A DNA stretch of 24,000 nucleotides. Source: an uncultured Actinomycetes bacterium (GTDB taxonomy: Bacteria > Actinomycetota > UBA4738 > HRBIN12). Below the pieces are notes generated by a model. That model did no database searches. It was not told where the DNA came from and was given only the letters and a program-made list of their open reading frames with translations. Of this stretch, positions 2,622 to 22,591 are shown piece by piece. The stretch is from the NCBI GenBank assembly GCA_963825685.1, contig CAWGUD010000027.1, positions 130,538 through 154,537 of the forward strand, written 5' to 3'. The position numbers and the translations under genes were made by a program. Numbering within the stretch: the first letter of the stretch is position 1; the number at the start of each line of letters is the position of its first letter.

Positions 2622-3566
2622 ATGCGTGACCGCCCGACAATCCGAACGGTCCATCATCGATCGCGCCTCCTGCGCAGAACCACCCTGACCGTCGTCGTCG
2701 TGATGGGTGCGCTCTCCGCAGGCTCCCTCCCCGCGGCCCAGGCGGTCCCGACGGTCTCCGCCGAACTCCTCACGACGACGAAGACGTCGGAATGGCGCTC
2801 ACCGAGCCCGGACCCCACCGGCCTCACGCTCATCCGTTCGACCAACCGTCTGATCGTGTCCGACGCGGAGATCGACGAGATCCCCAGGCTATGGAAGGGC
2901 GGGAACCTCTTCACCGCGTCGCGAAGGGGGGCGCTGATCCGCAGAGGCTCCGTGCTCCGCGCCACGCCCGAACCCGAGGACGTCGCCTGGCACGGCGGCT
3001 CACGTTCTCTCTACGTCGTCGACGACGACAGAGATCGCGTCTACCGCATCCGGGCGGGGGATGACGGCCGCATCGGCACCTCCGACGATCGGTCGCGGGC
3101 GATCCTCAGGACGAGGTCCTTCGGCAGCCGTGATCCCGAGGGGCTGGCGTGGCGGAGCCGCGGACGCACGCTGATCGTGACGGATGCCCGACGGGGCCGT
3201 GTCTCCACCGTTCGAGCCGGCCGGGACCGCAGGTTCGGCACGCCCGACGACGTCACGAACATGTTCGCCACCCCGCCGCTGGGACTCACGATCCCCGAAG
3301 ACGTCGAGTTCGATCCACGATCTCGCCATCTCTTCATCGTGAGTAGCGCCGAGGATGTCGTCGCCGAGACGACCATGCGTGGGCGTCTGATCCGCACGAT
3401 CGATCTCTCGGCCGCGAACGTCCACCGAGCCGCCGGTATCGCGGTCACGCCGAGTCCGACGGACCCCGGTGTGATGCACTTGTTCATCGTCGCGAAGGGC
3501 ACCGACAACGAGACGGACCCGATGGAGAACGACGGGAAGCTGTTCCGGTTCTCGTTCCCCACGTGA
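2622..3566 (+). CDS. Secreted repeat protein of unknown function (possible beta-propeller, YjiK/SdiA-regulated-like)
   Basis: 314-aa ORF with an N-terminal RR-containing signal peptide (SRLLRRTTLTVVVVMGALSAGSLPAAQA|VP). It has repeated blades of the type L(Y/I)VxD..R.RV(Y/S).(I/V)RAG.D.R(I/F)GT.DD and DPEG/IPED motifs. The functional family is a guess. Confidence 0.6.
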   Translation: MRDRPTIRTVHHRSRLLRRTTLTVVVVMGALSAGSLPAAQAVPTVSAELLTTTKTSEWRSPSPDPTGLTLIRSTNRLIVSDAEIDEIPRLWKGGNLFTASRRGALIRRGSVLRATPEPEDVAWHGGSRSLYVVDDDRDRVYRIRAGDDGRIGTSDDRSRAILRTRSFGSRDPEGLAWRSRGRTLIVTDARRGRVSTVRAGRDRRFGTPDDVTNMFATPPLGLTIPEDVEFDPRSRHLFIVSSAEDVVAETTMRGRLIRTIDLSAANVHRAAGIAVTPSPTDPGVMHLFIVAKGTDNETDPMENDGKLFRFSFPT

Positions 3567-3588
3567 ACAAGCGTCGAGCGCGGTCTGG

Positions 3589-4068
3589 CTACAGGTTGAC
3601 GACCATCGTCCAGTGATCGCCGTCCTCGGCGATCCGCTGGAAGCCGGCCCGCTGGTACATCATGCGGGACCGGTTGTGCACCGCGACCGAGAGCGAGAGT
3701 GCCTGGAAGCCCTCCTCGCGCGCCTGCACCATCGCGGAATGAAGCAGCGCGTGTCCGATGCCTTTGCGCCGATGCAGCGGCTGGACGGCCACGGAGAGCT
3801 CCGGCGTCTTCTCGTCGATGAAGCCGTACCCGGGTTCGTCCTCGGTGAACTGGCGGTACCAGACGGCACCCACGGGCTCGCCGTCGAGCTCGGCGATCAC
3901 ACCACCGTCGCCCGGACGCCCCCAGCCCTCGTGGTACCGACGCAGGACAGGTTCGTCCAGCACCTCCTCCATCGACTCACGAGGCCAGTCGGGGTTCCAG
4001 CGCGCGGCCTCGTACAGCATCGTCTTCAGGAAGTCGGCATCGCCCCTGGTGGCCGGACGGATGTTCAC
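3589..4068 (-). CDS. GNAT family N-acetyltransferase
   Basis: 159-aa ORF with a GTG start at 4068 preceded by GGGAGG 8 nt upstream. It carries the acetyl-CoA motif VQPLHRRKGIGHALL and ends ...MYQRAGF. Confidence 0.85.
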   Translation of the reverse strand: MNIRPATRGDADFLKTMLYEAARWNPDWPRESMEEVLDEPVLRRYHEGWGRPGDGGVIAELDGEPVGAVWYRQFTEDEPGYGFIDEKTPELSVAVQPLHRRKGIGHALLHSAMVQAREEGFQALSLSVAVHNRSRMMYQRAGFQRIAEDGDHWTMVVNL

Positions 4069-4125
4069 CTGGCTCGCCTCCCGCTTGGCTCACGGTGCAG
4101 CGGCAACCGTACCGCAGGCGGCGTC

Positions 4126-6489
4126 TCAGCTCGATGCCTCGCGCTCGGAGCGAGCCGACGCCCGAGCGGTCTCGAGCTGGTAGGAGACGCTCGTGAGGAC
4201 GACGCGATCCTCGAACAGGAACAGGCGCTTCACGAACAACGCGGTCTGTCCGTGCAGCGGCAGCTGCCACCACTTCGCCACGATGTACTCGGGGACCACG
4301 ACGTTCACGATCGTGTCCGCCCGCTCGGTGTACCGACGCACCTCGGCCAGCATCGGGATCGAGAGGTCGCGGAACGGCGCCTCGACGATGTCGAGCGGCA
4401 CGGCCTCGACGACGTCGAACCAGTCTTCGCCGATCGAGTGCGCGGCCTCGGGGTCGAGATCGAAGTAGACCGCCCTCGTCACGGTCGCGTCGAGCGTGCG
4501 GGCGTAGTTCACCGCCCGCACGGACACGTCGTTCACCGAGGAGAGGAACACGAGCGTCACGGTGCGCTGCGGGATCAGCGGCTTGCCACCGGCTCCCGAG
4601 GGGGAACCTTCCTCGAGCACGACGGGGACGTCGGTGACGACGACGTTGGGGGTGCGCAGCATGCTGGCCTTCAGGCGCACGAGGTCGCGGCTGCCCACGA
4701 GGTAGGAGAAGAAGCCCTGGGGACGCAGCAGCTCGGGGACGATCACGGTCACGAAGTCGTCGGGGCCACGGTCGATCCCCTCCACCACGCTCCGGACACC
4801 CGACGTGAGGTTCGAAGCCGCGATCGGCATCAGGTCGGGGATGCCCGCCCCGACGAAGGAGCGCCAGCGCGCCTGCACGTCGGCGGCGACCTCACCCTCG
4901 CGACAGGGGAAGACCGGCCGGATGTCCTCGGGGCGGAACGACCGCAGGTACCCCACCGCGCCGGCGGTCGCGACGTCGAAGTCGCGAACGAGCAGCACCA
5001 CGTGGTTCTCACCCGTGGCACCCGGTCGGACCCGCTTCGCGCTCAACTGGCGCCGCACGTTCGCGTAGTGGTGGTGGATCGAGTAGAAGACGGGCACGAG
5101 CAGCGCCATGATCAGGATCGAGAGCCACGCGCCGCTCGACCACTTCGAGGCGCCGACCACGATCAACACCACGAACGTCGTGACCGCCCCGACCGCGTTG
5201 ATCACGATCGATCGGCGCCACCCCTTCATCGCGGTGTCGCCCTTGCGACCCTCCGCGATCCAGTGCTTCACCATGCCCGATTGAGACAGCGTGAACGACG
5301 TGAACACGCCGACCACGTAGAGCCCGATCACCGCGTTCAGGTCCGCGTCGAAGATGTAGATCATCACCGCCGACAGCAGCCCGAGCACGAGCACGCCGTT
5401 GGAGAAGACGAGGCGGTCGCCGCGGTTCACGAACTGGCTCGGCAGGTACCGGTCGCGGGCCAGGATCGAGGCGAGACGCGGGAAGTCCTGGTAGGCCGTG
5501 TTGGCAGCAAGGATCAGGATCGCCGCCGTGAACACCTGCACGACGTAGAAGCCGATCGATCCGTCGCCGAAGACCGCGATCGCGATCTGCGCCGGCACGG
5601 AACGCTCTTCACTCGCGACGACGCCCTCGACGTGCGTCGCGAGCCAGGAGATGCCCATGAACATCGAGATCGCGATGCCACCCATGATCGCGAGCGTCGT
5701 CGCGGCGTTGTGCGCCTGCGGACGTTTGAACGCCGGCACGCCGTTGGAGATCGCCTCCACACCGGTGAGCGCGGTGGCGCCTGACGAGAACGCCTTGAGG
5801 AGCACGAACAGCCCGACCGCGCCCGCGGTCGTCGCCGCGTCGTGGATCGGCTCGACCTCGACACCCACCGCCGGGCAGCCTCCGAGGCACTGACCGAGCC
5901 CGAGCACGATCAACGCACCGATCGAGAGCACGAAGCCGTAGGTCGGGATCGCGAACACCACGCCCGACTCCTTGGAGCCGCGCAGGTTCGCGAGCGTGAC
6001 GAAGGCCACGAAGAAGATCGAGAGGGCGACCGCGTGCTCGTTGGCTGCCGGAATCGCCGAACCGATCGCGAACACCCCGGCCACGATCGAGACGACGACG
6101 GTCATCATGTAGTCGAAGAGCAGGGCCGCGGCGGCGACGAGGCCGGGAGCCTGGCCGAGGTTCTCCTTGCTCACGATGTACGCCCCGCCGCCCCCCGGGT
6201 AGGCCCGCACGGTCTGGCGGTACGAGGCGATCACGAGCGCCATCAAGAGCGAGACGGCTCCCGCGATCGGGAGCACGTAACCCTGCGGCGCCGTGGTCGC
6301 GATCGTGAGCACGAGGAGGATCTCGCCGGTGGCGTAGGCGACCGACGACAGCGCGTCGGACGCGAAGACGGGCAGCGCGAGGACCTTCGGCAGCAGGGTG
6401 TGTTCGAGGCGCGAGCTCGAGAAGGCGCGGCCGAGCACGACCCGCTTGAACACCCCGGTCGACGGCGCGGGAAGGTCGGTCCTGGCCAT
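4126..6489 (-). CDS. APC-superfamily permease, KimA-type K+/H+ symporter-like, with two tandem C-terminal cytoplasmic domains (paralogue 1)
   Basis: 787-aa ORF. Motifs: FKRVVLGRAFSS..LEHTLLPKVLALPVFASDALSSVAYATGE, SYRQTVRAYPGGGGAYIVSKENLG, LLKAFSSGATALTGVEAISNGVPAFKRPQAHNAA and LAANTAYQDFPRLASILARDRYLPSQFVNRGDRLVFSNG. As far as I recall these match B. subtilis KimA (YdaO) and M. tuberculosis Rv2690c-type proteins. Two 131-aa C-terminal repeats occupy nt 4615-5007 and 4174-4566. Confidence 0.8.
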   Translation of the reverse strand: MARTDLPAPSTGVFKRVVLGRAFSSSRLEHTLLPKVLALPVFASDALSSVAYATGEILLVLTIATTAPQGYVLPIAGAVSLLMALVIASYRQTVRAYPGGGGAYIVSKENLGQAPGLVAAAALLFDYMMTVVVSIVAGVFAIGSAIPAANEHAVALSIFFVAFVTLANLRGSKESGVVFAIPTYGFVLSIGALIVLGLGQCLGGCPAVGVEVEPIHDAATTAGAVGLFVLLKAFSSGATALTGVEAISNGVPAFKRPQAHNAATTLAIMGGIAISMFMGISWLATHVEGVVASEERSVPAQIAIAVFGDGSIGFYVVQVFTAAILILAANTAYQDFPRLASILARDRYLPSQFVNRGDRLVFSNGVLVLGLLSAVMIYIFDADLNAVIGLYVVGVFTSFTLSQSGMVKHWIAEGRKGDTAMKGWRRSIVINAVGAVTTFVVLIVVGASKWSSGAWLSILIMALLVPVFYSIHHHYANVRRQLSAKRVRPGATGENHVVLLVRDFDVATAGAVGYLRSFRPEDIRPVFPCREGEVAADVQARWRSFVGAGIPDLMPIAASNLTSGVRSVVEGIDRGPDDFVTVIVPELLRPQGFFSYLVGSRDLVRLKASMLRTPNVVVTDVPVVLEEGSPSGAGGKPLIPQRTVTLVFLSSVNDVSVRAVNYARTLDATVTRAVYFDLDPEAAHSIGEDWFDVVEAVPLDIVEAPFRDLSIPMLAEVRRYTERADTIVNVVVPEYIVAKWWQLPLHGQTALFVKRLFLFEDRVVLTSVSYQLETARASARSEREASS

Positions 6490-6498
6490 GGCGGCAGC

Positions 6499-8886
6499 CT
6501 ACGTGGTCGCCGGGGTCCCGGCGGTCGGGCTCGGGTCGGGCCCGACCTCGGGCGCCGACAGGTGGAACGGCACGCTCGTGACCACGACACCCGGCTCGAA
6601 GAGCAGCACCCGTTTGAAGAACAGGGCGGTCTGGTTGTGCAACAGGTTCTCCCACCAGTGTCGTGGCACGAGCTCGGGCAGCACGACGGTGACCACGGTG
6701 TCGCCGCGTGATGTGTGCGCGCGGATCTCTTCGAGCAACGGCGGACCGAAGTCGCGGAAGGGAGCCTCGACCAGCACGAGCGGCACGTCGAGCTGCCGCT
6801 CGTGCCACTCGTCCACCACGCCCTCGACCTCGTCGGGATCGGTGACCATGTAGATCGCCTCGATCGCGGTGGGGTGCAGCGACTTGCCGTAGATCACGGC
6901 ACGCACCGTCGGATCGTGCACCGCGGAGACGGGCACGAGGACCACCGTGCGCTCCGGCTCGAGCGGTCGATCGCCGAGCCAGGTCGGCCGCGCTTCCGAC
7001 GGCACGAGCGGCACGTCGGTCACGACCACTCGCGGCTCGAACAGCAGCGCCGTCTTCAGCAGGAACGCCTCCCGATGTCGCACGAACTGCCAGACCGTGT
7101 TGCGCGGAAGCAGCTCGGGGATCACGACCGTGAGGAATCGGTCCCGCTCGTGGCGAGGCACCGAGCGCACGAAGCGACGGACGGATCGGACGAGGTGCCG
7201 GTCGGCGCCTCGGAGCGGCTCCAGCTCGCCCATGCGGGGGGCGATCACCGACCACTCCGCCGCCACGCCCTCGAACGCATCGGCAGGGCCGACGTACAGC
7301 GCGTTGAAGCTGGTGGGGCGAACGGCCCGCAGGTAGGCGACCGCATCACGGGTCGCGAGCCCCAGGTCGGGCACGAGCAGCAGCATCGTGCCGCTCGCGG
7401 CGTCGCGCCCGGTCAGGCGGCGAGCCTGCAGCGCGCGCGCCACGTGCTCGTAGTGGCGATGCACCGCCCAGAAGAACAGCACGATGAACGGCATCGCGAC
7501 GATCACGATCCAGGCGCCCTTGGCGAACTTCGTGACCGTGACGACGACGAGCACGACGCCGGTCGTGGCCGCGCCGATGCCGTTGATCACGGCGCTCCGC
7601 TGCCAGCTCCCCTCCTTCGTCCGCATCCAGCGCCGGACCATGCCCGCCTGCGACAGCGTGAAGGCCGTGAACACGCCGACGACGTAGAGCTGGATCAGCC
7701 GCGTGAGGTTGGCGTCGAACGCCCAGATCAGCATCGCCGCGAGACCGGCGAGGACGACGACGCCGTTCGAGAAGACGAGCCGGTCGCCCCGGTTGCGGAA
7801 CTGCGAGGGCATGAAGCGGTCGCGCGCGAGGATCGAGGCGAGCCGAGGGAAGTCCTGGAACGCCGTGTTGGCCGCGAGGATCAGGATGCCCGCGGTGAAC
7901 ACCTGCAGCAGCAGGAACATGAAGCCGCCGCCGAAGACCGTGTCGCCGATCTGGGCCAGCACCGGCAGCTCGTGGACGATGTCCTCGCTGATCCGCACGT
8001 GCAGGAGCACGGAGAGCGCGGTGATGCCGAGGAACATCGTGATCGACATCGCTCCCATCACCGCGAGGGTGGTCGCGGCGTTCCTCGCCTGCGGCCTGCG
8101 GAACGCCGGCACCCCGTCGGCGATCGCCTCGACGCCGGTCAACGCGGTCGCACCCGACGAGAACGCGCGCGCGATCAGGAACAGCGTCAGCGTGTGCTCG
8201 ACCTCGAGGGGAAGGTCAGCGGTCTCGGCGAGCGGGCAGCCGCCCATGCAGCGGACGAAGCCCGTCACGAGCGTGATCGCGATCATCAGCACGAACCCGT
8301 AGGTCGGGATCGCGAACAGCGACCCGGCCTCCTTCACGCCTCGGAGGTTGGCGAGGGTCACGAGGGCGACGAGCGCGATCGCGATCGGCACGCGCATCGG
8401 TACGAGGGTCTCCGGTGCGACGGAGGCGATCGCCGTGGTCCCCGCGGTGATGCTCACCGCCACGGTCAGCACGTAGTCGGTCAGGATCGCGGCGGCGGCG
8501 GTGAGGCCGGGGATCGTCCCCAGGTTCTCGCGGGCGACGATGTAGGAGCCGCCGCCGGTGGGATAGGCACGCACCGTCTGCCGGTACGACGTGACGACGA
8601 TGGCCAGCAGCAGGGCGATCGCCAGCGCGATCGGCATCCTGAGCGTGAGGGCCCCGGCCCCGGCCGCCACGAGCACGAGCATCATCTCCTCGGTGGCGTA
8701 CGCGTTCGAGGAGAGGGGGTCGGAGGAGAAGACCGGCAGGGCGAGGAACTTCGGCAGGAGCTGGTGCTCGGCCTTGTCGGAGGCGATGGCCCGTCCGACG
8801 AACAGTCGCTTCAGGGGGCCCCCACCGACCCTGCGAGGGAGTTGCAGCTCTGCAGGCACGGCGAGCATCCTCGCACGTCGCGGCAC
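6499..8886 (-). CDS. APC-superfamily permease, KimA-type K+/H+ symporter-like, with two tandem C-terminal cytoplasmic domains (paralogue 2)
   Basis: 795-aa ORF, colinear paralogue of 4126..6489 with the same motifs (LKRLFVGRAIAS..AEHQLLPKFLALPVFSSDPLSSNAYATEE, SYRQTVRAYPTGGGSYIVARENLG, ARAFSSGATALTGVEAIADGVPAFRRPQARNAA, RGDRLVFSNG). Its stop lies 9 nt before the start of paralogue 1. The start is uncertain: GTG 8886 or ATG 8868. Confidence 0.8.
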   Translation of the reverse strand: MPRRARMLAVPAELQLPRRVGGGPLKRLFVGRAIASDKAEHQLLPKFLALPVFSSDPLSSNAYATEEMMLVLVAAGAGALTLRMPIALAIALLLAIVVTSYRQTVRAYPTGGGSYIVARENLGTIPGLTAAAAILTDYVLTVAVSITAGTTAIASVAPETLVPMRVPIAIALVALVTLANLRGVKEAGSLFAIPTYGFVLMIAITLVTGFVRCMGGCPLAETADLPLEVEHTLTLFLIARAFSSGATALTGVEAIADGVPAFRRPQARNAATTLAVMGAMSITMFLGITALSVLLHVRISEDIVHELPVLAQIGDTVFGGGFMFLLLQVFTAGILILAANTAFQDFPRLASILARDRFMPSQFRNRGDRLVFSNGVVVLAGLAAMLIWAFDANLTRLIQLYVVGVFTAFTLSQAGMVRRWMRTKEGSWQRSAVINGIGAATTGVVLVVVTVTKFAKGAWIVIVAMPFIVLFFWAVHRHYEHVARALQARRLTGRDAASGTMLLLVPDLGLATRDAVAYLRAVRPTSFNALYVGPADAFEGVAAEWSVIAPRMGELEPLRGADRHLVRSVRRFVRSVPRHERDRFLTVVIPELLPRNTVWQFVRHREAFLLKTALLFEPRVVVTDVPLVPSEARPTWLGDRPLEPERTVVLVPVSAVHDPTVRAVIYGKSLHPTAIEAIYMVTDPDEVEGVVDEWHERQLDVPLVLVEAPFRDFGPPLLEEIRAHTSRGDTVVTVVLPELVPRHWWENLLHNQTALFFKRVLLFEPGVVVTSVPFHLSAPEVGPDPSPTAGTPATT

Positions 8887-8905
8887 GAGCGACGAGCGGA
8901 TCGGG

Positions 8906-9595
8906 CTAGCCGGCGACCTCGGCCACCCAGCGATAGCCGACCCCCGGCTCCGTGACGATCAGGGCCGGGGCCTGCGCATCGTCGCCGAGCTTCTTCCGCA
9001 GGGCACGCACGTAGGTGCGCAGGTAGGTCGTCTCGGTCCCGTAGCCCTGCCCCCACACCTTCCGCAGGAGCCACTGATGGGTGAGGAGCTTGCCCGGGTT
9101 CGTCACGAGCGCCTCGAGCAGGCCGTACTCCGTGGGTGTGAGCCGCACCTGCTCGCCGTCGAGGGTCACCAGCCGACGGGGAAGGTCGACCTCGATCCTG
9201 CCGAACCGCAGCACGGGTGCGGATGGCTCGTCAGACTGCTTGCGGCGCATAGCAGCCCGGGCCCGGGCGAGGAGCTCCTCCATGCCGAAGGGCTTCGTGA
9301 CGTAGTCATCGGCGCCCGCGTCGAGCGCGGCGACCTTGTCGGTCTGAGATTCCCGCACCGAGAGCACGATCACCGGCACGTCGCTGAACCCGCGAACACG
9401 GCGGATCACCTCGGTCCCGTCGATGTCGGGGAGCCCGAGGTCCAGCAGCACGAGATCGGGCGCCTGCTCGGCAGCGCCGACGACCCCTTCCTCGCCGGTG
9501 CCGACGGTCGCGACGTCGTACCCGTGGGCCTCGAGGCTCGTGCGAAGCGCCCGTCTGATCTGCGGCTCGTCGTCGACGACGAGGACCAGGGTCAT
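8906..9595 (-). CDS. OmpR/PhoB-family response regulator, KdpE paralogue
   Basis: 229 aa with a receiver domain (VVDDEPQI...DLGLPDIDG...KPF) and a winged helix (LTPTEYGLLEALVTNPGKLLTHQWLLRKVWG...YLRTYVRALRKKL). By eye it is about half identical to the KdpE at 14866..15552. Its ATG overlaps the stop of the upstream kinase (ATGA). Confidence 0.9.
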   Translation of the reverse strand: MTLVLVVDDEPQIRRALRTSLEAHGYDVATVGTGEEGVVGAAEQAPDLVLLDLGLPDIDGTEVIRRVRGFSDVPVIVLSVRESQTDKVAALDAGADDYVTKPFGMEELLARARAAMRRKQSDEPSAPVLRFGRIEVDLPRRLVTLDGEQVRLTPTEYGLLEALVTNPGKLLTHQWLLRKVWGQGYGTETTYLRTYVRALRKKLGDDAQAPALIVTEPGVGYRWVAEVAG

Positions 9596-11106
9596 GTGCG
9601 CGCCTCCTGATCGGCCGGGACCCCGGCGCGAGCGAGGTCGGCCTCGAGTCCCGGCGTGTACGCGGGGATCTCGAACACGAAGGTCGCGCCCTCACCGACC
9701 GCGTCCTCGACCCAGATGCGGCCGCCGTGCGCCGTGACGATCGCGTTCGCGATCGCGAGTCCCAGGCCGGTGCCGGGGGAATCCGGGATCGAGGCGCCTC
9801 GGTAGAAGGCCTCGAAGATGCGCTCGCGGTCACCGTCAGGAACGCCGGGCCCCTGATCGGTCACCCGCACGATGACGTGATCGTTCGACGGCGCGACCGA
9901 CAGCCTCACCTCACCTCCGGGCGGCGAGTGGCGTGCGGCGTTCTCGAGCAGGTTCGTCATCACCTGGTCGAGCTGCATCTCGTCGACGGCGACCGGGGGC
10001 ACGTCATCGTCGATGTCGAGCACGATCCGCACGTCGTGCAGGCGCGGCACGAGCCGGGCGACGACGACCTCCGCGATCTCGTCGAGACCGGCCTCGTTGC
10101 GGGCGGGGATCAGGGCGCCCGCCCGGATGCGCGCGAGGTCGAGGATGTTGCCGACCAGTCGGTTCAGCCGGTCGGTCTCCTCGAGGATCGTCGTGAGCAG
10201 CTCCCGTTCCTGCGTCGGATCGTGCTCCACGCTGGGATCGAGCAGGCTCGTGACCCCCGCCTTGATCGACGCGAGCGGCGTGCGGAAGTCGTGGGTCACC
10301 GAACTGAACATCGCCGCGCGCAGCTGGTTCGTCTCGGCATCGAGCTGCGCGAGCCGGGCGCGGGCGTCGAGCCGAGCGCGGTCGAGCGCGGCGGCGGCCT
10401 GCTTCGATGCCGCCTCGAGGAGGAGCTGCTCGTGCGGCCCGAGGGGCCGACGTCCGGCGGGGCGCTCGACCCGCAGCGTGCCGAACGAGACCGGCCCGAC
10501 GACGAGGGGCACCACGCTGTCCGGACCGCCGGGCGTGAGCTCGGAGCGCTCCGCGCGCGCGCGGAGCTGCGTGCCGTCGAGCTCGACGTGCACCTCGGCC
10601 GAGACCAGCCCGAACGGCTCCAGCAGCACGCGCACGAAATCGTCGAGCACCCGGTCGGGCACCTCGCCCGAGACGAACCTCGACGAGAGGTGCCCGAGCA
10701 GGCGTGCCTCGCGCTCACGACGGCTCGCCCGGGCCCGCTCCTCGGCGGCACCCCCGACCAGGATGCCGACGACGAGCGCCACGGTCAGGAACACCACCGC
10801 GGTGACCGCCTCCTCGGTGCCCTCGAGCTGCAGGGCAAGCCCCTGTGCCTCGGACAGGAACACGAGCCCCAGCGACGACAGGATCGCAGCGAGGAGGCCC
10901 GCCCAGAGGCCACCCGCGACCGTCGCGATCACGATCGCCAGCAGGAAGAGCGCGATCGCGGCCGCCGGCCCGTTGCGGGCGAGCGGGATCGAGGCCACGC
11001 CGGCGGCCGCGGGGGCGACCACCGCGATCGCCACCCCGCGGACGCGCAGGCCGGGGAATCGGCGCCGTTCCGGCTCGTTCACTCCCAGATCCATCGTGTT
11101 GGCCAT
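9592..11106 (-). CDS. Sensor histidine kinase, KdpD C-terminal-half type (TM/DUF4118-like + GAF-like + HisKA + HATPase_c), lacking the KdpD N-terminal and Usp domains
   Basis: 504 aa. The H-box FSSVTHDFRTPLASIKAGVTSL is near-identical to that of KdpD in this window (LSAVSHDLRTPLASIKAAASSL). The N, G1 and G2 boxes are present (LLENAARHSP, DQGPGVP, GTGLGLAI). The N-terminus has 3-4 TM helices, and no Walker-A KdpD domain is present. Confidence 0.85.
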   Translation of the reverse strand: MANTMDLGVNEPERRRFPGLRVRGVAIAVVAPAAAGVASIPLARNGPAAAIALFLLAIVIATVAGGLWAGLLAAILSSLGLVFLSEAQGLALQLEGTEEAVTAVVFLTVALVVGILVGGAAEERARASRREREARLLGHLSSRFVSGEVPDRVLDDFVRVLLEPFGLVSAEVHVELDGTQLRARAERSELTPGGPDSVVPLVVGPVSFGTLRVERPAGRRPLGPHEQLLLEAASKQAAAALDRARLDARARLAQLDAETNQLRAAMFSSVTHDFRTPLASIKAGVTSLLDPSVEHDPTQERELLTTILEETDRLNRLVGNILDLARIRAGALIPARNEAGLDEIAEVVVARLVPRLHDVRIVLDIDDDVPPVAVDEMQLDQVMTNLLENAARHSPPGGEVRLSVAPSNDHVIVRVTDQGPGVPDGDRERIFEAFYRGASIPDSPGTGLGLAIANAIVTAHGGRIWVEDAVGEGATFVFEIPAYTPGLEADLARAGVPADQEART

Positions 11107-11134
11107 CGTGCCATGCGTATCGGCACGGATCCGT

Positions 11135-11184
11135 CTTCACGTGATCTTCACGCCACGGCGCCGTTCCTTCACGCCACCCTCACA
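11135..11184. promoter_or_regulatory. Array of four phased 7-bp direct repeats (two pho-box-like 7+4+7 units); candidate response-regulator operator upstream of the kinase/regulator/permease operon
   Basis: Plus strand reads CTTCACG-tgat-CTTCACG (11135-11152) and CTTCACG-ccac-CCTCACA (11167-11184). Repeat starts are at 11135, 11146, 11167 and 11178, spaced 11/21/11. The array lies 29-78 nt upstream of the kinase ATG (11106). On the operon-sense strand the repeat reads CGTGAAG. Confidence 0.4.
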
Positions 11185-11306
11185 GACCGAGGACGATGCT
11201 CTGGGCAGGAGTAGAACGTCCTCCGAACCAAGCCCGGAGGCCGGACGGCGCCCTCCAGCCCGCCCGACCTCCGGGCCCCGTCCTTTCCGGACCCCTCCCC
11301 CGCCGG

Positions 11307-11322
11307 TGTGAACGACTTCACA
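11307..11322. promoter_or_regulatory. Perfect CRP/GlxR-type palindrome TGTGA-N6-TCACA
   Basis: The sequence is TGTGAacgactTCACA at 11307-11322, in the 314-bp divergent intergenic region. An extra TGTGA half-site lies at 11330-11334. A Crp-family regulator gene lies 540 bp away. Confidence 0.55.
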
Positions 11323-11420
11323 GCGTTCCTGTGACCCACGCCGCCCACCTTCCGACGGCCCACGCCTACGGTCGGACCGAGGGCTGCGAGGTGAGCAGCC
11401 ACCGAGCGGAGGGAGAGGTC

Positions 11421-11792
11421 ATGAGCGCCACCGAGGTGCAGCACCCGAGCGGATCGGCCCACACGGGAACGCCCTGGTCGTGGGTGGGAGTCGCCGCCGT
11501 GATGGTGTTGATCTCACGGTGTTGTCGATCGGGCTGGCTCGCAACGTCGGGAGAGACGACGCGTCCGGGCGGTGGTGAGACGGCACCGGTCACCGAGATC
11601 CAGATCGAGGTGCCGGCGAAGGACCTCGTCCTGCACGGCCGCGGACTCGTGGACATGCCGGACCAGGTCGCAGTCGCCAAAGGTGCCGCAGCCGCGACGA
11701 AGTCGACCGCGAACGAGACGTCGGGCGCAGGAGCGGGGATCGCAGCGAAGGCGACGTGCCCTGAGCAGCTCGCCCTGAAGCTCTTCTGCTGA
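11421..11792 (+). CDS. Hypothetical small protein (123 aa) with one N-terminal hydrophobic segment
   Basis: Internal ATG of ORF 11196..11792, preceded by GGAGGGAGAGG. Third-codon-position GC is high throughout. The hydrophobic stretch is PWSWVGVAAVMVLI. A strong hairpin follows 18 nt after the stop. I recognise no family. Confidence 0.45.
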   Translation: MSATEVQHPSGSAHTGTPWSWVGVAAVMVLISRCCRSGWLATSGETTRPGGGETAPVTEIQIEVPAKDLVLHGRGLVDMPDQVAVAKGAAAATKSTANETSGAGAGIAAKATCPEQLALKLFC

Positions 11793-11861: not shown

Positions 11862-12554
11862 TCACCCGTCCGAGAGTCGCTCGAGGGCCTCGGGGTCCAG
11901 CAGCAGGTATCGCCGACCGTCGCGCCGGACGATGCCGCGCCGACCGAACTCGGACAGCGTCTTCGACACGCTCTCGCGCGTCACCCCGCACAGGCTCGCG
12001 AGGTCTGCCTGCGAGATCGGTGGCACCGCCGGCACACCGTCGGGTCCATCGTCCCTCGCGAGCTGCAGCAGCCGCTTCGCGAGGCGGCCCTTGAGGTCGA
12101 GCCACACGAGGTCGTCCGCGCTCGTCTCCTTCGCGATCACCTGTCTCGCGAGCGTCCGCAACAGACCGATCGCGAGCGTCGGCACCTCGCTCGCCAGCGA
12201 GATGAACGCCTCCCGCTCGAGGACCCAGATGCGTGCGTCCTCGAGGCACAGGACCGAGGCGGTTCGCTCGGTTTCGGCGAAGACCCCAAGCTCGCCGAAG
12301 AGCCGCACGGATTCCAGCCGGCCCTGCAGCTGCGAGCCCGAGGACGGCGACGACGTGGCGATCTCCAGTCGCCCTTCGAGGAGCATGAACACCTCCGACG
12401 ACGGGTCTCCCTGCATCGTGACGTACGTGCCGGCCCGATAGGCGCGGATCCGCCCCGTCGCCACGACCCGGGCGAGCGTGTCGTCCGGGATGCCGGCGAA
12501 GAGCTCATGCCGGCGCATCGCCCGCATCGCGCGGTCCGTGTCTCGGGTGCTCAT
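11862..12554 (-). CDS. Crp/Fnr-family cyclic-nucleotide-binding transcriptional regulator
   Basis: Lies within ORF 11862..12620. The start was set at ATG 12554, preceded by GAGGAGGTGG. The cNMP pocket is FGELGVFAETERTASV (compare CAP GELGLFEEGQERSAWV). The HTH is ISQADLASLCGVTRESVSKTLSEF, and its RE..K recognition residues resemble M. tuberculosis Crp SRETVNK. Confidence 0.85.
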   Translation of the reverse strand: MSTRDTDRAMRAMRRHELFAGIPDDTLARVVATGRIRAYRAGTYVTMQGDPSSEVFMLLEGRLEIATSSPSSGSQLQGRLESVRLFGELGVFAETERTASVLCLEDARIWVLEREAFISLASEVPTLAIGLLRTLARQVIAKETSADDLVWLDLKGRLAKRLLQLARDDGPDGVPAVPPISQADLASLCGVTRESVSKTLSEFGRRGIVRRDGRRYLLLDPEALERLSDG

Positions 12555-12658
12555 GCCACCTCCTCGGATGACCCATCGTCGCTCGCGACGGGCCGCGCGT
12601 CGACCCCGCGACACCGGCATGCTGCCGTCGCGCGCGGCGTGGTCTAGGATGCCCCGCG

Positions 12659-13321
12659 ATGCGAGTGATCATCATGGGATGCGGCCGCGTCGGCTCCGAG
12701 CTGTCGAACGAGCTCGTCGACGACGGCCACGACGTCACCGTGATCGACAAGAATCCCGAGGCCTTCTTCCGCTACCCGCCGGGCGACGGTGCGACGACCG
12801 TCGTCGGGCTAGGGTTCGACCGCGACGTGCTGGCGGAGGCGGGCATCGAGGAGGCTGACGCCTTCGTCGCGGTCTCCAGTGGGGACAACTCGAACATCGT
12901 CTCGGCTCGCGTCGCGCTCGAGAACTTCCATGTGCCCAAGGTCGTGGCGCGTATCTACGACCCCCGGCGTGCCGACATCTATGAGCGGCTCAACATCCCG
13001 ACCGTCGCCACCACGAGGTGGGGCGTGAAGCAGATCCAGCTGATGCTGTTCCACGACCGCCAGGAGATCCGCGAGACGCTGGGCGGTGGCGAGCTGCTGC
13101 GCATGCGCATGCCGGTGGGACCCCACATGGTCGGCAAGCCCGCGACCTCCTTCGACGTGCCGGGCAAGATCCTGATCGCCGGGGTATCGCGCGGAGGCGG
13201 CGGCTTCTTGCCCACCCCGGAGAGCACCTTGCAGGCGGGGGACTACCTCGTGGTGATGCTCACGAAGGACGGCATGGACACGCTCGACGAGGTCTTCGAG
13301 CCGGCCGGGGAGCACCACTGA
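12659..13321 (+). CDS. trkA: TrkA-family K+ uptake regulatory protein (RCK: TrkA_N + TrkA_C), CeoB-like
   Basis: 220 aa with a Rossmann motif (MRVIIMGCGRVGSELSNELVDDGHDVTVID) and a C-terminal TrkA_C-like region (LLRMRMP..HMVGKP..FDVPGKILIAGVSRGG...LQAGDYLVV). Confidence 0.9.
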   Translation: MRVIIMGCGRVGSELSNELVDDGHDVTVIDKNPEAFFRYPPGDGATTVVGLGFDRDVLAEAGIEEADAFVAVSSGDNSNIVSARVALENFHVPKVVARIYDPRRADIYERLNIPTVATTRWGVKQIQLMLFHDRQEIRETLGGGELLRMRMPVGPHMVGKPATSFDVPGKILIAGVSRGGGGFLPTPESTLQAGDYLVVMLTKDGMDTLDEVFEPAGEHH

Positions 13322-14041: not shown

Positions 14042-14869
14042 TCAGCCGTCGGCGGTGGTCGCGGCGGCGATCGCCGCTCGCAGCGCTCGGTCTCGTTCGA
14101 GCAGCAAGGCGAGCTGGTTCCCGAACGCCTCCAGGATGCGTCGCTCCGAGGCGCTGAGTGGTTCGCGGACTCCGCGCATCACCAACAGCCCCAGGTTGCG
14201 GCGCCCCACGTTGAGGGGGAGCCGCTCCACGCCCTCCCCACCGCTGGGCGGCACGGCGCCGGGTTCCGTTCCCACCGTCGCCTGCTCCACGAGCCCGCGA
14301 TCGGAACCCTCCTGCACGTACAGGGCGCCGTCCAGGAACCCGAACGACGCCACCACGACCCGCAGCACGCCCTCGTACGGCCGAGGTCCTGGTTGGGGCT
14401 CGACCAGCAGGCGGCTGAGGTCCTGCTGCCTGCGGAGCTCCTCGGCGCGGGCCTCCGCAGCCCGCGCCCGTGCGTCGGCGCGGGCGACGAGCACGGAGAT
14501 CAGCACCGACAGCCCCAGGAAGACGAACAGCACGATCACGTCGTGCGACTTGCCGATCACGAACGTCTCGTACGGGGGTAGGAAGAAGAAGTTGAAGACG
14601 GCGAACCCGAGCACACTCGCCACGATGCCCGGGCCGAGCCCACCCAGGCCGACGCACGCGACGACCAGCACGAGGAAGCCGAACCCCGTCGCGACCGGGT
14701 CGACCCGCTCGCGGATCGCCGGCGCAGCGAGCACGATCGCCGCCGTTCCGGCGACCGCGAGCACGTACGCCGCCGCGACCCGGCCGGAGACCTGGATGCG
14801 CGGACGACGTTGGGGCGGTGTGCCGACCTCGTGCCGGTCGGGCCGATCAGGTGCCTGAGATGCCGTCAT
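14042..14869 (-). CDS. Kinase-less KdpD-like sensor core (DUF4118 transmembrane domain + GAF-like domain)
   Basis: Internal ATG 14869 of ORF 14042..15088, overlapping the kdpE stop (ATGA). It has four TM helices with the DUF4118 hallmark FAVFNFFFLPPYETFVI, then a coiled segment and a GAF-like region (VLRVVVASFGFLDGALYV...LLVMRG...ERRILEAFGNQLALLLERDRA). It ends where the HisKA helix would begin. Confidence 0.75.
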   Translation of the reverse strand: MTASQAPDRPDRHEVGTPPQRRPRIQVSGRVAAAYVLAVAGTAAIVLAAPAIRERVDPVATGFGFLVLVVACVGLGGLGPGIVASVLGFAVFNFFFLPPYETFVIGKSHDVIVLFVFLGLSVLISVLVARADARARAAEARAEELRRQQDLSRLLVEPQPGPRPYEGVLRVVVASFGFLDGALYVQEGSDRGLVEQATVGTEPGAVPPSGGEGVERLPLNVGRRNLGLLVMRGVREPLSASERRILEAFGNQLALLLERDRALRAAIAAATTADG

Positions 14870-15552
14870 GGGGTTCCCTCCGGCTCGAACCGGTACCCCA
14901 TGCCGGGCTCGGTGATGAAGAACCGAGGTCGCGCCGGGTCGGGCTCGAGCTTGCGTCGGATCTGCGCCATGTACACACGCAGGTAGTTCGTCTCGTCGTG
15001 GTACTGCGGCCCCCACACCTCCTGCAGCAGCTGTCGTTGCGTCACGAGCTTGCCCGGGTTGCGGACCAGGATCTCCACGACGTGCCACTCGGTCGGCGTG
15101 AGCCGCACCTCACCCTCGGCGGTGCGCACCCGCGCCGCACCGAGGTCGACCGTGAAGGCGTCGGTCGTGACTTCTGGTTCCTCGTCCGTCGGACGCAGCC
15201 GCCGTTCGGCGGCTCGCAGCCGCGCGAGGAGCTCGTCCATGCCGAAGGGCTTCGTCACGTAGTCGTCGGCGCCGGCGTCGAGGGCACGGACCTTGTCCGG
15301 CTCCTGGTCACGGGCCGAGAGCACGAGGATCGGCATGCGGCTCCATGCCCTGATGCCCTCGATCACGTCGACCCCGTCGATCCCGGGCAAGCCGAGATCG
15401 ACGATCGCCACATCGGGACGTTCACGGGCGGCGATCGCGAGGGCCTCCTCGCCATCGGGGGCGGTCACCACGTCGTACCCACGGGCGCGCAGGTTCGTGC
15501 GGAGCCCGCGCACGATCTGGGGCTCGTCGTCGACCACCAGCACCCGGGTCAT
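14866..15552 (-). CDS. kdpE: Response regulator KdpE
   Basis: 228 aa with motifs LSARDQEPDKVRALDAGADDYVTKPFGMDELLAR and LTPTEWHVVEILVRNPGKLVTQRQLLQEVWGPQY..ETNYLRVYMAQIRRKLE. Its ATG overlaps the kdpD stop. Confidence 0.92.
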   Translation of the reverse strand: MTRVLVVDDEPQIVRGLRTNLRARGYDVVTAPDGEEALAIAARERPDVAIVDLGLPGIDGVDVIEGIRAWSRMPILVLSARDQEPDKVRALDAGADDYVTKPFGMDELLARLRAAERRLRPTDEEPEVTTDAFTVDLGAARVRTAEGEVRLTPTEWHVVEILVRNPGKLVTQRQLLQEVWGPQYHDETNYLRVYMAQIRRKLEPDPARPRFFITEPGMGYRFEPEGTP

Positions 15553-18107
15553 CCACCCACCTCCGCAGGAGGATGCGCCGATGGCTCGGGGAGCGCCTCA
15601 CCGGAGGGCTCGGCGAGCGGGAACGCCACCACCATCGTCAGTCCGCCGCCGGGCGTCTCGTCGGGTGTGAGGGTGCCCCCCATCGCCTGGACGAACCCGC
15701 GAGCCACCGCGAGCCCGAGGCCGACGCCGTCGACACCTGCGCGATCGCCGAGTCGCTGGAACGGTTCGAAGACCCGTTCACGGTCCTCCGCCGGGATACC
15801 GGGGCCACGATCGACCACGCGTAGCTCGACCCGGCCGCTGGCGGCGGATCCGAAGACGCCCACGGGAGCGTCCGGCGGGCTGAACGCCCGCGCGTTCGCG
15901 ACCAGGTTCGCCACCGCACGCTCGAGGAGCGCCGCATCGACGTCGATGCGCGGCAGATCCTCGGGAACGTCGACCTCGACGTCGTGGCCTCGTCCCGGGA
16001 GGCTGGCCAGGGCACGCAGCACCACCTCGTCGAGCCCGACCCTGCTCGGCGTGAGGCGCAACATGCCGCTCTGGATGCGGCTCATGTCGAGCAGGTTGCC
16101 GACGAGCTCGGTGAGCCGGTCTGTCTCTTCCTCGATCGTCGCGAGGAACTCGTCTCGCTCCTCGTCGTCCCACACCACGTCTCGCTGGCGGAGGGAGCTC
16201 GCGGCCGCCTTGATCGAGGCCAGCGGCGTGCGCAGATCGTGCGAGACGGCCGACAGGATCGCCGCTCGCAGGTCACTGACCTCGGAGACCCGCTCGGCCT
16301 CCGCCACGTCGCGTTCCAGCGCCCTCGTCCGCACGGCCGCCGTCAGCTGAGCCGCGAAGGCGGCCAGCACGCGACGCCGATCCGCAGGGAGGCGGCGGCC
16401 GCGGAGGACCAGCACTCCACCGTCCTCGAGGTCGATCGTTTCATCGCCGTCGTCGGGCGAGGCGATCGGCTCACCGGTCGCGGCCTCGACGCGCCACCCC
16501 CGGTCGGTGGTGGGTGTGAGGACCGCGGCGCCCTCGAGCCCGAACGTCGCGACCACCTGCCGCACCAACGTCGGCAGCGGATCCTCCTCCGCCGCGAGCG
16601 ACCCGGCCATCCGCGCGAGCGCCTCGGCCTCACCCCGGCCGCGCGCGGCCTCGGCCCGCGACCGCTCGGCCCGATCGACCAGGATGCTCACGGCGACGGC
16701 GGCGGCGACGAACGCGACGAGGGCCAACAGGTTCTCGGCCTCGGCGATCGTCCACGTGTGGATCGGCGGCGTGAAGAACCAGTTGAGCAGGAGCGAGGCA
16801 GCCACCGCGCTCGCGACCGCGGGCCAGATGCCGCCGACGGCCCCGATCGCGAGCACGAGGATGAAGTAGAGCAGCACATCGGCCGTGAGGCCGAGGGAGC
16901 CACGCGCGGCGGTGAGCGCGAGCGTGAGCAGCGGCAGCCCGACGAGGGCGAGCGCGAACCCCGCGACCTGGCGGGCGGGGGGGAGCCCGACGAGCGCGCG
17001 ACGCCGCTTCGGCGCCCCCCCACCCGCAGGGGCTGCGCTGGAGATCACATGCACGTCGATCGGGCCGGATCGCCGGATCACCCGGTTGATCACCGACCCC
17101 CGGATCAGCTCGGCGACCCGCGACCGATCGCTCTCGCCCAGCACCACCTGGGTGACGTTCTCCGCCCGGGCGACATCGAGGAGCGCGTCCGGCACGCTCG
17201 CGCCGACGACCTCGTGGAACGCGCCACCGAGCGCGCGGACGAGGGTTCGCGTCTCCTCGAGCGCGGCAGCATCGGCGACGCCGTCCTCAGGCACCACATG
17301 CACGGCGACGAGGTCCCCACCGCGCCGCGTGGCCATGCGCGACCCCCGACGGATCAAGTTCTCGTCCTCATCGGGACGACCGGTCACCCCGACCAGGACG
17401 CGTTCGCGCGTCTCCCACGGCCCTTCGATGTCGTGGACCCGCATGTACTCGTGCAGCGACTCGTCGACGCGGTCGGCCATCCACAGGAGCGCCAGCTCCC
17501 GGAGGGCGCCGAGGTTCCCCTCTCGGAAGTAGTTGCCGAGCGCGGCGTCGACCTTCCCGGGCGGGTAGATGTTCCCGTGCGCCATGCGACGGCGGAGCGC
17601 GTGTGGGGTCATGTCGACGAGCTCCTGTTGGTCGGCGGCGCGCACGATCTCGTCGGGGATCGTCTCGCGCTGAGCGACCCCGGTGATGCGCTCGACGACG
17701 TCGTTCACCGACTCGAGGTGCTGGATGTTCACCGTCGAGATCACGTCGATGCCCGCTACCAGCAGTTCCTCGACGTCCTGCCAGCGTTTCGCGTTGCGGG
17801 AGCCCGGCACGTTCGTGTGCGCGAGCTCGTCGACCAACGCGACCTCGGGCGCGCGAGCGAGGAGCCCGTCGACATCCATCTCCTCGAACGTCGAGCCTCG
17901 GTACTCGATCAGGCGGCGGGGCAGGACCTCCAGGTCACCGACCTGCTCGGCGGTGCGCGGGCGACCATGGGTCTCGATGAAGCCGACCACGACGTCGGTG
18001 CCGCGGTCGCGGCGCCGTCGGCCCTCGTTCAACATCGCGTAGGTCTTGCCGACGCCCGCGGCGAAGCCGACGTAGATACGCAGCTCGCCGCGGCGACGAT
18101 CGCTCAT
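15549..18107 (-). CDS. kdpD: Sensor histidine kinase KdpD (full length: KdpD-N, Usp, 4 TM/DUF4118, GAF, HisKA, HATPase_c)
   Basis: 852 aa. Motifs: GELRIYVGFAAGVGKTYAMLNEG (Walker A), FIETHGR, LLLNWFFTPPIHTWTI and H-box SAVSHDLRTPLASIK. Its ATG overlaps the kdpC stop. Confidence 0.95.
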   Translation of the reverse strand: MSDRRRGELRIYVGFAAGVGKTYAMLNEGRRRRDRGTDVVVGFIETHGRPRTAEQVGDLEVLPRRLIEYRGSTFEEMDVDGLLARAPEVALVDELAHTNVPGSRNAKRWQDVEELLVAGIDVISTVNIQHLESVNDVVERITGVAQRETIPDEIVRAADQQELVDMTPHALRRRMAHGNIYPPGKVDAALGNYFREGNLGALRELALLWMADRVDESLHEYMRVHDIEGPWETRERVLVGVTGRPDEDENLIRRGSRMATRRGGDLVAVHVVPEDGVADAAALEETRTLVRALGGAFHEVVGASVPDALLDVARAENVTQVVLGESDRSRVAELIRGSVINRVIRRSGPIDVHVISSAAPAGGGAPKRRRALVGLPPARQVAGFALALVGLPLLTLALTAARGSLGLTADVLLYFILVLAIGAVGGIWPAVASAVAASLLLNWFFTPPIHTWTIAEAENLLALVAFVAAAVAVSILVDRAERSRAEAARGRGEAEALARMAGSLAAEEDPLPTLVRQVVATFGLEGAAVLTPTTDRGWRVEAATGEPIASPDDGDETIDLEDGGVLVLRGRRLPADRRRVLAAFAAQLTAAVRTRALERDVAEAERVSEVSDLRAAILSAVSHDLRTPLASIKAAASSLRQRDVVWDDEERDEFLATIEEETDRLTELVGNLLDMSRIQSGMLRLTPSRVGLDEVVLRALASLPGRGHDVEVDVPEDLPRIDVDAALLERAVANLVANARAFSPPDAPVGVFGSAASGRVELRVVDRGPGIPAEDRERVFEPFQRLGDRAGVDGVGLGLAVARGFVQAMGGTLTPDETPGGGLTMVVAFPLAEPSGEALPEPSAHPPAEVGG

Positions 18108-22316: not shown

Positions 22317-22402
22317 CAGAACCGCTCCGGGAACACGAGGGCGATCACGAGGTAGACGATCAGTCCGAGCGCCAGCACGATGCCCACGACGTCGTCGGTC
22401 AC
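22316..22402 (-). CDS. kdpF: K+-transporting ATPase subunit F (28 aa)
   Basis: Not in the ORF track because it is too short. The GTG at 22402 gives (M)TDDVVGIVLALGLIVYLVIALVFPERF, matching the KdpF pattern (...YL..AL..PE.F). Its stop overlaps the kdpA ATG (TGATG). Confidence 0.8.
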   Translation of the reverse strand: MTDDVVGIVLALGLIVYLVIALVFPERF

Positions 22403-22482
22403 AGCCGATCCACCCCCCGCACGAGCAGCATGAGCGCGGCGAACACCACGAGCGTCACCACCACGAAGATCACATCAGCCAC
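22399..22482 (-). CDS. Candidate 27-aa single-TM micropeptide opening the kdp operon
   Basis: A GTG at 22482 lies 5 nt downstream of a strong GAAGGAGG (22488-22495). It translates to (M)ADVIFVVVTLVVFAALMLLVRGVDRL. Its stop overlaps the kdpF GTG (GTGA). Confidence 0.5.
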   Translation of the reverse strand: MADVIFVVVTLVVFAALMLLVRGVDRL

Positions 22483-22540: not shown

Positions 22541-22591
22541 CTTGATGCCCCCTTGACGGGGGCTGTTCGGATCATTGACGCGTCGCTGACG
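22541..22591. promoter_or_regulatory. Array of four phased 7-bp direct repeats (two 7+4+7 units); candidate KdpE operator upstream of the kdp operon
   Basis: Plus strand reads CTTGATG-cccc-CTTGACG (22541-22558) and ATTGACG-cgtc-GCTGACG (22574-22591). Repeat starts are at 22541, 22552, 22574 and 22585, spaced 11/22/11. The array lies 59-109 nt upstream of the first kdp-operon start codon. On the sense strand the repeat reads CGTCAAG. Confidence 0.35.

Follow-up and report, generated by a model that had tools for sequence, protein, structure and literature searches.

A KdpDE-paralogous two-component system predicted to drive tandem KimA-type K+ transporters in uncultured Actinomycetota

We analysed a 24,000-nucleotide stretch of DNA, hereafter the window, from an uncultured Actinomycetes bacterium (GenBank assembly GCA_963825685.1, contig CAWGUD010000027.1, positions 130,538 to 154,537 of the forward strand), and describe a minus-strand operon in which the genes for a short KdpD-like sensor kinase and a KdpE-like response regulator stand ahead of two genes for KimA-type K+ transporters (Table 1). 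Taken as a whole, the window is a K+ supercluster, with kdpFABC-kdpDE, a gene for a DUF4118-only protein, a trkA-trkA pair, a crp-like gene and then the kinase operon. The four minus-strand open reading frames (ORFs) that an earlier note on this DNA had grouped as an operon are all present exactly where it placed them, and their GC content at third codon positions (0.90-0.94) is that expected of real genes in DNA of about 70% GC. Kinase and regulator genes meet in the ATGA overlap that the note had described, with AGGAGG ahead of it, and, also as described there, 9 nucleotides (nt) separate the two transporter genes; the note's gap of 19 nt between the regulator stop and transporter 1 holds for the first possible start codon, and because homologous products in other assemblies are called at 786-789 amino acids (aa), the true start may be 8868 or 8859, for a gap of 37-46 nt. 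Absent from the note is a fifth co-oriented member, a GNAT acetyltransferase gene, which begins 57 nt after transporter 2 behind a ribosome-binding site of its own (GGGAGG). No terminator-like site lies in the intergenic gaps, the three such matches found on scanning 3400-11500 being all intragenic, and a simple sigma-70 promoter scan of the same interval found none, a result that is uninformative at 70% GC. The layout points to a five-gene operon from 11106 to 3589, in the order kinase, regulator, transporter 1, transporter 2 and GNAT, which is predicted to be read as a single transcript.

Table 1. Features of the kinase operon and of the related kdp genes in the window
Feature	Coordinates	Strand	Basis
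Conserved structured element directly upstream of the box array	11184..11298	-	covariance model
Four direct repeats, predicted regulator binding site	11134..11183	-	exact matches, conservation
-10-like hexamer TACGCA, followed by 7 nt and the kinase ATG at 11106	11114..11119	-	read from sequence
Sensor histidine kinase, 504 aa	9592..11106	-	Pfam, homology
KdpE-paralogous OmpR/PhoB-type response regulator, 229 aa	8906..9595	-	Pfam, NCBIfam, PDB matches
KimA-type K+ transporter 1, 795 aa from first start codon	6499..8886	-	phmmer against PDB
KimA-type K+ transporter 2, 787 aa	4126..6489	-	phmmer against PDB
GNAT acetyltransferase, 159 aa, last gene of operon	3589..4068	-	Pfam
Genuine kdpDE pair downstream of kdpC: full-length kdpD (15549-18107), kdpE (14866-15552)	14866..18107	-	
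kdp promoter region, GTCAAT...GTCAAG-N5-ATCAAG direct repeats, predicted boxes of genuine KdpE	22541..22585	-	

The kinase consists of a DUF4118 module with four transmembrane (TM) segments (55.6 bits in Pfam), a GAF-like region, and DHp and CA parts matched by HisKA and HATPase_c, the H-box of the DHp being SVTHDFRTPLASIKA. These are its only Pfam families: no KdpD-N (PF02702) and no Usp domain were found in the 504-aa chain, and the 852-aa KdpD of the window carries all five (KdpD-N, Usp, DUF4118, HisKA and HATPase_c). Such domain searches had been recommended by the earlier note, and together with the alignment of the two kinases, which are 38% identical over 373 aa spanning the GAF-like, DHp and CA region, they bear out its description of an N-terminally truncated KdpD-type kinase (a TM/GAF/DHp-CA chain) in the same window as a bona fide KdpD. 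Against the NCBIfam KdpD model NF007793, whose cut-off is 1123 bits, the short kinase scores 207 bits and the window's full-length KdpD is also below, at 503.9. More than 2000 homologues share this architecture at a length of about 480-510 aa, with weak matches to GAF or GAF_3; those listed come from soil metagenomes, and the named ones belong to uncultured Actinomycetota.

The regulator, with REC and Trans_reg_C domains in Pfam, is likewise what had been claimed, a KdpE paralogue: its best NCBIfam model is KdpE (NF007820, 240.5 bits; next MtrA, 198), its best PDB matches are KdpE structures (E 1e-62; MtrA 1.7e-49), and it is 55% identical to the window's KdpE and 49% to that of E. coli. It scores below the KdpE equivalog cut-off of 325 bits, but the genuine KdpE of the window fails it too (249.6 bits), so that this cut-off is not discriminating in the lineage. 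Every K+-sensing site proposed for E. coli KdpD falls within the TM and GAF domains, and the N-terminal domain of KdpD has been shown to act as a serine kinase directed against KdpB, which it inhibits (Silberberg et al. 2024, PMC11018627). The short kinase has kept the parts to which K+ sensing is ascribed, together with the histidine-kinase parts, and lost the KdpB-directed one, which fits a cargo other than Kdp. In near-identical assemblies (96-99% identity), kinase and regulator are called as one fused protein (P0001, 733 aa; P0061, 629 aa); one indel at the ATGA overlap would suffice for such calls, which may be assembly errors or genuine fusion variants.

Both permeases, whose Pfam match is to AA_permease_2, find B. 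subtilis KimA (PDB 6s3k) as their only match when searched with phmmer against all PDB sequences, with E 1.3e-120 over residues 25-486 for transporter 1 and E 4e-116 over residues 14-483 for transporter 2, and their cytosolic part aligns to KimA residues 467-605, a PPAT-like domain (E 3e-11 and 1.5e-05). When KimA numbering is rebuilt from the phmmer alignments and the list of K+-site residues is taken from the literature (PMC10284832; bioRxiv 10.1101/2023.07.05.547876), the coordinating or gating residues D36, Y43, D117, T121, S125, T230, E233 and Y377 prove identical in both proteins (8/8), and each of them recurs in roughly 84-107 of 112 KimA-like ORFs from the related loci described below. 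The comparison with B. subtilis KimA, which the earlier note had proposed, hence agrees with its claim that the cargo is KimA-like and not a Kdp ATPase. Public names of the homologues ('APC family permease', 'amino acid transporter') are misleading in view of the KimA-only PDB match, the K+-site residues and the cytosolic domain; we regard the cargo proteins as KimA-type K+ transporters, not amino-acid permeases, with K+ transport itself predicted from these likenesses.

The two transporters are 50.5% identical to each other and share an architecture of an APC/LeuT-fold membrane domain followed by two tandem cytosolic domains. In each permease the extra ~150 aa repeat the cytosolic domain of KimA in tandem (E 1.9e-15, 35% identity), a point missed by the earlier note; the two copies occupy residues ~500-635 and ~640-783 of each permease and are also present in homologues of 762-801 aa. 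Swapping of single cytosolic domains is how KimA normally dimerises, and the tandem pair could accordingly form an intramolecular pseudo-dimer. Within the pocket that binds cyclic di-AMP (c-di-AMP) in KimA, R337 is Ser in both permeases, H579 and Q581 are kept, S582 is Thr, and N580 and P479 are kept in transporter 1 only. Rfam returned no match, to the ydaO/kimA riboswitch or to any other family, in the window at gathering threshold, none at E<=10 in 11050-11450, and none in a search of seven related loci.

The gene order extends well beyond this genome. One genome per species was scanned, giving 80 loci with a kinase identity of 55-96% onto which the window's proteins were mapped by tblastn, and synteny was counted in the 62 loci whose sequence reached far enough downstream. 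In this survey, of the kind that the earlier note had called for, 59 of the 62 species-level genomes have a KimA-like gene within 1.5 kb after the regulator and on the same strand, and 16 contain at least two KimA genes. A divergent trkA pair stands immediately ahead of the kinase operon (50/54 loci), and an independent look-up with precomputed Pfam labels gave the same neighbourhood picture. Among chromosome-sized records of cultured relatives, only a looser kdpDE / trkA / KimA-like neighbourhood was found, and in a plasmid collection the KimA-like genes of Streptomyces and Rhodococcus plasmids were without a kinase-regulator neighbour. The closest complete relative (L002, 96% kinase identity) has a third KimA-like gene (3853-6147, 62% identity) that adjoins the DUF4118-only gene, at the place taken in the window by kdpFABC-kdpDE.

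Just upstream of the kinase gene lie four direct repeats with the consensus CGTGAAG (GTGAGGG at 11183-11177, GTGAAGG at 11172-11166, GTGAAGA at 11151-11145 and GTGAAGA at 11140-11134), whose starts are offset by 0, 11, 32 and 43 nt; no other exact box match occurs anywhere in the window. The strict four-box pattern recurs in 66 of 78 related loci, once per ~20-kb locus, on the kinase strand and just upstream of the kinase, with an inter-box sequence that varies freely. Behind the array, 59 of the 66 loci have a hexamer of the form TAnnn[T/A] (TAGCGT in 39) and then an in-frame start 5-9 nt further on. Between box 4 and the hexamer lie 6, 16 or 35-36 nt, and since these steps are approximately multiples of the helical turn (about 10 bp), a protein bound to the boxes would keep its face to RNA polymerase, as expected for an activator. 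PhoB-type activation by OmpR/PhoB-family regulators proceeds from tandem 11-bp direct repeats beside the -10 element. The missing Shine-Dalgarno sequence and a start codon 5-9 nt after the hexamer indicate a leaderless mRNA, suggesting that the operon mRNA of the window, too, is leaderless or nearly so. We also considered TGGCACGATGG, close to the start codon, as a sigma-54-like site and rejected it on spacing; Actinomycetota are not known to have sigma-54.

Boxes of this type set the short kinase apart from its paralogues. At least two GTGAAG copies are found upstream of 75 of 78 orthologous kinases and of no other kinase gene (0), so that the GTGAAG arrays belong to the short kinase only, and the kdp promoter has GTCAAG or ATCAAG boxes; GTCAAG and GTGAAG differ at position 3. 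A GTCAAG-N5-GTCAAG pair, then TAGCCT and a leaderless start, also stands just upstream of full-length kdpD in four related loci (L041, L045, L054 and L058), where kdpD is divergent from a KimA paralogue, and in L040 the same pair is found beside a divergent KimA paralogue, ~1.3 kb upstream of kdpD. Short kinase-regulator pairs of a third class (kinase identity 32-41%, regulator identity 50-62%) have GTAAGG or GTAAAG boxes followed by TATCGT, and these pairs, too, adjoin KimA paralogues, as do most GTCAAG and GTAAGG/GTAAAG sites. The recognition helix differs in parallel: residues 190, 194 and 197 are T, T and R in the regulator described here, N, V and A in KdpE, and E, V and S in the third class, and they are invariant within class (74 sequences of this regulator, 17 of KdpE). 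A pairing of R197 with the G at box position 3 would be a plausible specificity rule. Further short KdpD-like kinase/KdpE-like regulator pairs were seen in L025 (3651-8259), L032 (1649-8296), L050 (12111-19001), and L070 and L073 (~3700-8330), adjoining divergent KimA paralogues (37-40% identity) and with a GTAAGG-type box pair between two back-to-back leaderless promoters; in L050, an orthologue of permease 1 stands behind the second kinase-regulator pair.

Overall, the wiring of a KdpDE-like system to KimA-type genes that the earlier note had claimed gains support, at the level of sequence, from the gene order in 59 of 62 loci, the box array at the promoter and the one-base difference from the kdp boxes. 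These data are consistent with a model, which we hold to be probable, where an autoregulated and probably K+-responsive KdpDE paralogue drives KimA-type K+/H+ symporters without a c-di-AMP riboswitch, its signal, activation, co-transcription and transport all being deduced. When K+ is scarce, the kinase would phosphorylate its KdpE-like partner, dimers of which would bind the two pairs of 11-bp-phased CGTGAAG repeats beside the -10 element and thereby switch on a leaderless or short-leader mRNA starting at or near the kinase start codon. The system would in this way raise its own level and make two proton-coupled K+ importers. Genuine KdpDE would meanwhile read GTCAAG at the kdp promoter, the two K+ circuits being separated largely by one base of the box and insulated also by T190, T194 and R197 of the recognition helix, where KdpE has N, V and A.

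The box array is immediately preceded, on its upstream side, by a conserved structured element, which comprises a long GC-rich hairpin with the invariant loop CUGGAGGG and a second hairpin in which an invariant Shine-Dalgarno-like GGAGGA is paired with a variable CUCC-type partner. A covariance model finds one copy in each of 74 loci and in the window, always in kinase sense and at the same position, and none elsewhere in 1.39 Mb. Across 50 sequences, compensatory changes occur at 13 of 16 pairs and 95.3% of cells pair; the covariation score is 0.371, compared with at most 0.091 in slid controls. No Rfam family matches the element or the leader, at gathering threshold or at E<=10, in the window or the related loci. 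A small ORF was rejected as an explanation, as the frame of the conserved blocks changes from locus to locus, and so was a trkA leader, since G-U pairs and folding energy favour the kinase-sense strand (-69.7 vs -56.3 kcal/mol) and the element stays with the kinase when a crp gene and a hypothetical gene are inserted before trkA. It could represent a small RNA, a second, leadered transcript or a DNA-level structure. We give a rather slim chance to its being a new regulatory RNA class, either a ligand-sensing leader or a small RNA, that acts with the KdpE paralogue to set KimA-type K+ uptake; if that were true, the element and a one-base box code for three KdpE paralogues would amount to an unseen partitioning of K+ uptake that is independent of the c-di-AMP riboswitch.

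Side by side with the element, a perfect CRP-type palindrome, TGTGA-N6-TCACA, occupies 11307-11322, between the element and a small hypothetical gene on the plus strand (probable start 11421), and a Crp/Fnr-family regulator gene (11862-12620, minus strand) adjoins the palindrome region. The insertion of crp and the hypothetical gene between trkA and the kinase is confined to the sub-clade of the window (L002, L003 and L006).

Several observations weigh against the model of an activating, K+-responsive circuit. The TACGCA hexamer of the window's clade is non-canonical in its last base (A), which makes the transcription start there uncertain. Counted from the predicted start, boxes 3-4 cover about -34 to -13 in the majority of clades, which is nearer the -10 than a PhoB box, and boxes that adjoin the -10 hexamer in this manner could mean repression. 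The ligand of the sensor is deduced only from homology to KdpD, at 30-38% identity. The partly kept c-di-AMP pocket may, to judge from its residues, permit post-translational control of the transporters by c-di-AMP, and the upstream element may add to the control exerted by the regulator or override it. The quality of the assembly sequence is also imperfect, with apparent frameshifts in kdpA and in the second trkA. Some of these points would equally suit the same circuit with a different signal (osmolarity or turgor, pH, ionic strength or membrane state) or with repression from sites overlapping the -35/spacer: the position of boxes 3-4 is typical of some repressors, and the distance of the kinase from KdpD is accompanied by the loss of the KdpD-N and Usp input domains. 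We consider such a variant unlikely, because leaderless kdpD promoters that carry GTCAAG boxes show the same close geometry, KdpE is known classically as an activator, the 10-bp spacing steps fit face-dependent activation, and the cargo and all neighbours (trkA, kdp) are K+-related; moreover, the TM/GAF domains that the short kinase has kept hold all proposed K+-sensing sites of KdpD (PMC11018627).

The strict linkage of the structured element to the promoter in 74 loci and the window, its strand specificity and strong covariation, the pairing of its invariant GGAGGA and the remnants of the c-di-AMP pocket could also mean that the element is itself the main regulator, a new riboswitch or small RNA for c-di-AMP, K+ or another ligand, with the two-component system secondary and c-di-AMP perhaps acting on the transporters. 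This we find quite improbable, as the element lies upstream of the boxes and of the predicted leaderless start, and so probably outside the operon mRNA, no conserved promoter is visible upstream of it, no Rfam family including ydaO matches it, and Arg337 of KimA is replaced by Ser. That the adjacency carries no regulatory meaning, the two-component system controlling kdp or trkA and the KimA genes having a promoter of their own, seems very unlikely indeed: gaps of 19-46 nt and 57 nt could hold weak promoters, three related loci lack a KimA gene after the regulator, and trkA is the divergent neighbour in 50 of 54, but the order persists in 59 of 62 species although kinase identity drops to 55%, the GTGAAG array occurs nowhere else in the ~20-kb loci, the gaps are free of terminator-like sites, and two other paralogous kinase-regulator classes also adjoin KimA paralogues. 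Hardly any credence is left for permeases that carry amino acids or polyamines, as public annotation has it; AA_permease_2 is their only Pfam family and every named homologue is labelled accordingly, whereas the sole PDB relative is KimA, the K+-site residues and the KimA-specific cytosolic domain are present, and the gene context is one of K+. We retain the autoregulated KdpDE paralogue as the probable controller of the KimA-type genes.

KdpE is classically an activator, and KdpDE is treated as dedicated to the Kdp pump. With KdpDE-kdpFABC the present system shares a homologous kinase core, a KdpE-like regulator, 11-bp-phased direct repeats, an overlap of kinase and regulator genes, and K+ uptake. 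It differs in lacking KdpD-N (the Walker A / serine kinase domain) and Usp, in a cargo of two KimA-type symporters and a GNAT protein in place of a P-type ATPase, in its GTGAAG boxes (GTCAAG in kdp) and other recognition-helix residues, and in the position of the kinase and regulator genes, which stand first in the operon and not last, the kdpDE of the window lying downstream of kdpC. Relative to PhoB and the pho box, the 7-bp conserved core with 4-bp spacer and the pairing of boxes are alike, and in the clade of the window the likeness extends to a proximal pair that ends some 10 bp before the -10-like hexamer; here, however, there are two pairs 21 bp apart, and in most related clades the proximal one abuts the -10 hexamer, with an mRNA that is apparently leaderless.

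In B. subtilis, KimA (YdaO) is governed by the ydaO/kimA c-di-AMP riboswitch and by direct inhibition by c-di-AMP (PDB 6s3k, 8b70; PMC6994465, PMC10284832). The transporters of the window resemble it in their membrane and cytosolic domains, the eight K+-site residues, H579 and Q581 (and N580 in transporter 1), and depart from it in the missing riboswitch, the Ser at Arg337, the tandem cytosolic domain (~790 vs 607 aa) and their arrangement as two tandem paralogues behind a two-component system. The domain architecture of the kinase chain is that of split KdpD, known from other phyla as separate TM/GAF/DHp-CA chains that have been argued to stay K+-controlled and that partner a separate KdpD/Usp chain for the Kdp system (PMC11018627); our window, by contrast, also encodes a KdpD of full length, and the short kinase comes with a regulator and a box type of its own and with KimA cargo.

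Among better-known Actinomycetota, Streptomyces sp. BHT-5-2 has full-length kdpDE, trkA-trkA, a TrkA_N protein and a 683-aa KimA-like gene within 10 kb, but its KdpD is full-length and its KimA-like gene, with a single cytosolic domain, lies outside the kdpDE operon; in Nonomuraea, trkA-trkA stands next to a KimA-like gene. SCO5871-5875 of S. coelicolor may form a like neighbourhood, for which we found only the annotation of SCO5871/5872 as KdpD/KdpE. Vnz_27465 of S. venezuelae, a KimA-like protein, adjoins an RCK_C protein, and a review of Streptomyces lists KimA-like proteins as unstudied (PMC10117811). Searches of full-text literature yielded no account of KimA or KUP genes being controlled by a KdpDE-type system, in agreement with the statement in the earlier note that the circuit is undescribed.

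Beyond the kinase, regulator and transporters, the module includes the GNAT gene, which is found downstream in 60 of 62 related loci at ~75% identity. It is more conserved (about 75-98% identity) than the kinase, and in the coverage-filtered map of L021 (12189-12674) and L077 (12085-12561) it comes directly after the regulator, with no KimA-like gene between. This retention at higher identity, and the adjacency to the regulator without KimA, suggest a core role in the module; searches of NCBIfam and PDB gave generic GNAT matches only, with no specific assignment.

Turning to the neighbouring genes, kdpA (20650-22320, minus strand) is read in three frames. Its N-terminus (MAGWIQ...) starts at ~22316 in the first frame, residues 37-361 of E. 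coli KdpA align to 22222-21242 in the second, and residues 366-556 to 21228-20656 in the third, with one of the shifts near a GGGGG run. These shifts produce a false 1170-aa kdpA-kdpB fusion in the ORF list (18665-22177), and they are either assembly indel errors or the mark of a pseudogene. The second trkA (13321-14041, plus strand) starts at ~13321 (MRVVVTGGG...) and changes frame near 13850, an apparent frameshift after which its TrkA_C part (VAILREGHVVIPQP...) continues in the ORF 13814-14041. Directly downstream of kdpE, 14042-14863 (minus strand) encodes a protein of ~270 aa with DUF4118 and a GAF-like region and no kinase domains, which is 28% identical to the N-terminal half of the short kinase and has counterparts in the corresponding position of many related loci (37-95% identity); a role as a K+ sensor or modulator lacking a kinase part is possible. 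Finally, a 27-codon hydrophobic ORF (VADVIFVVVTLVVFAALMLLVRGVDRL; 22399-22482, minus strand), with the ribosome-binding site GAAGGAGG, lies ahead of kdpF (22316-22402), with which it shares a GTGA overlap, and is possibly an extra small membrane peptide of the kdp operon.

KimA-type transporters have so far been known under c-di-AMP control, through a riboswitch and direct binding, and KdpDE has been seen as dedicated to Kdp. Two-component control of a K+ transporter is of a known kind, and the logic of the proposed circuit is a natural extension of KdpDE and not a surprise; new here are the cargo, the trimmed sensor and the distinct box, and the box code and the structured element go beyond the routine. 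The annotation of thousands of such proteins as 'amino acid transporters' would be corrected. The system also raises the questions of whether the TM/GAF core alone senses K+ and of how paralogous OmpR-family regulators stay insulated from one another, residues 190, 194 and 197 and box position 3 being the candidate determinants. Taken together, the ~60 orthologous loci suggest that widespread soil Actinomycetota apparently duplicated KdpDE, dropped its KdpB-directed N-terminal domain, re-tuned the DNA specificity of the regulator by about one base and attached the resulting module to proton-coupled K+ importers.

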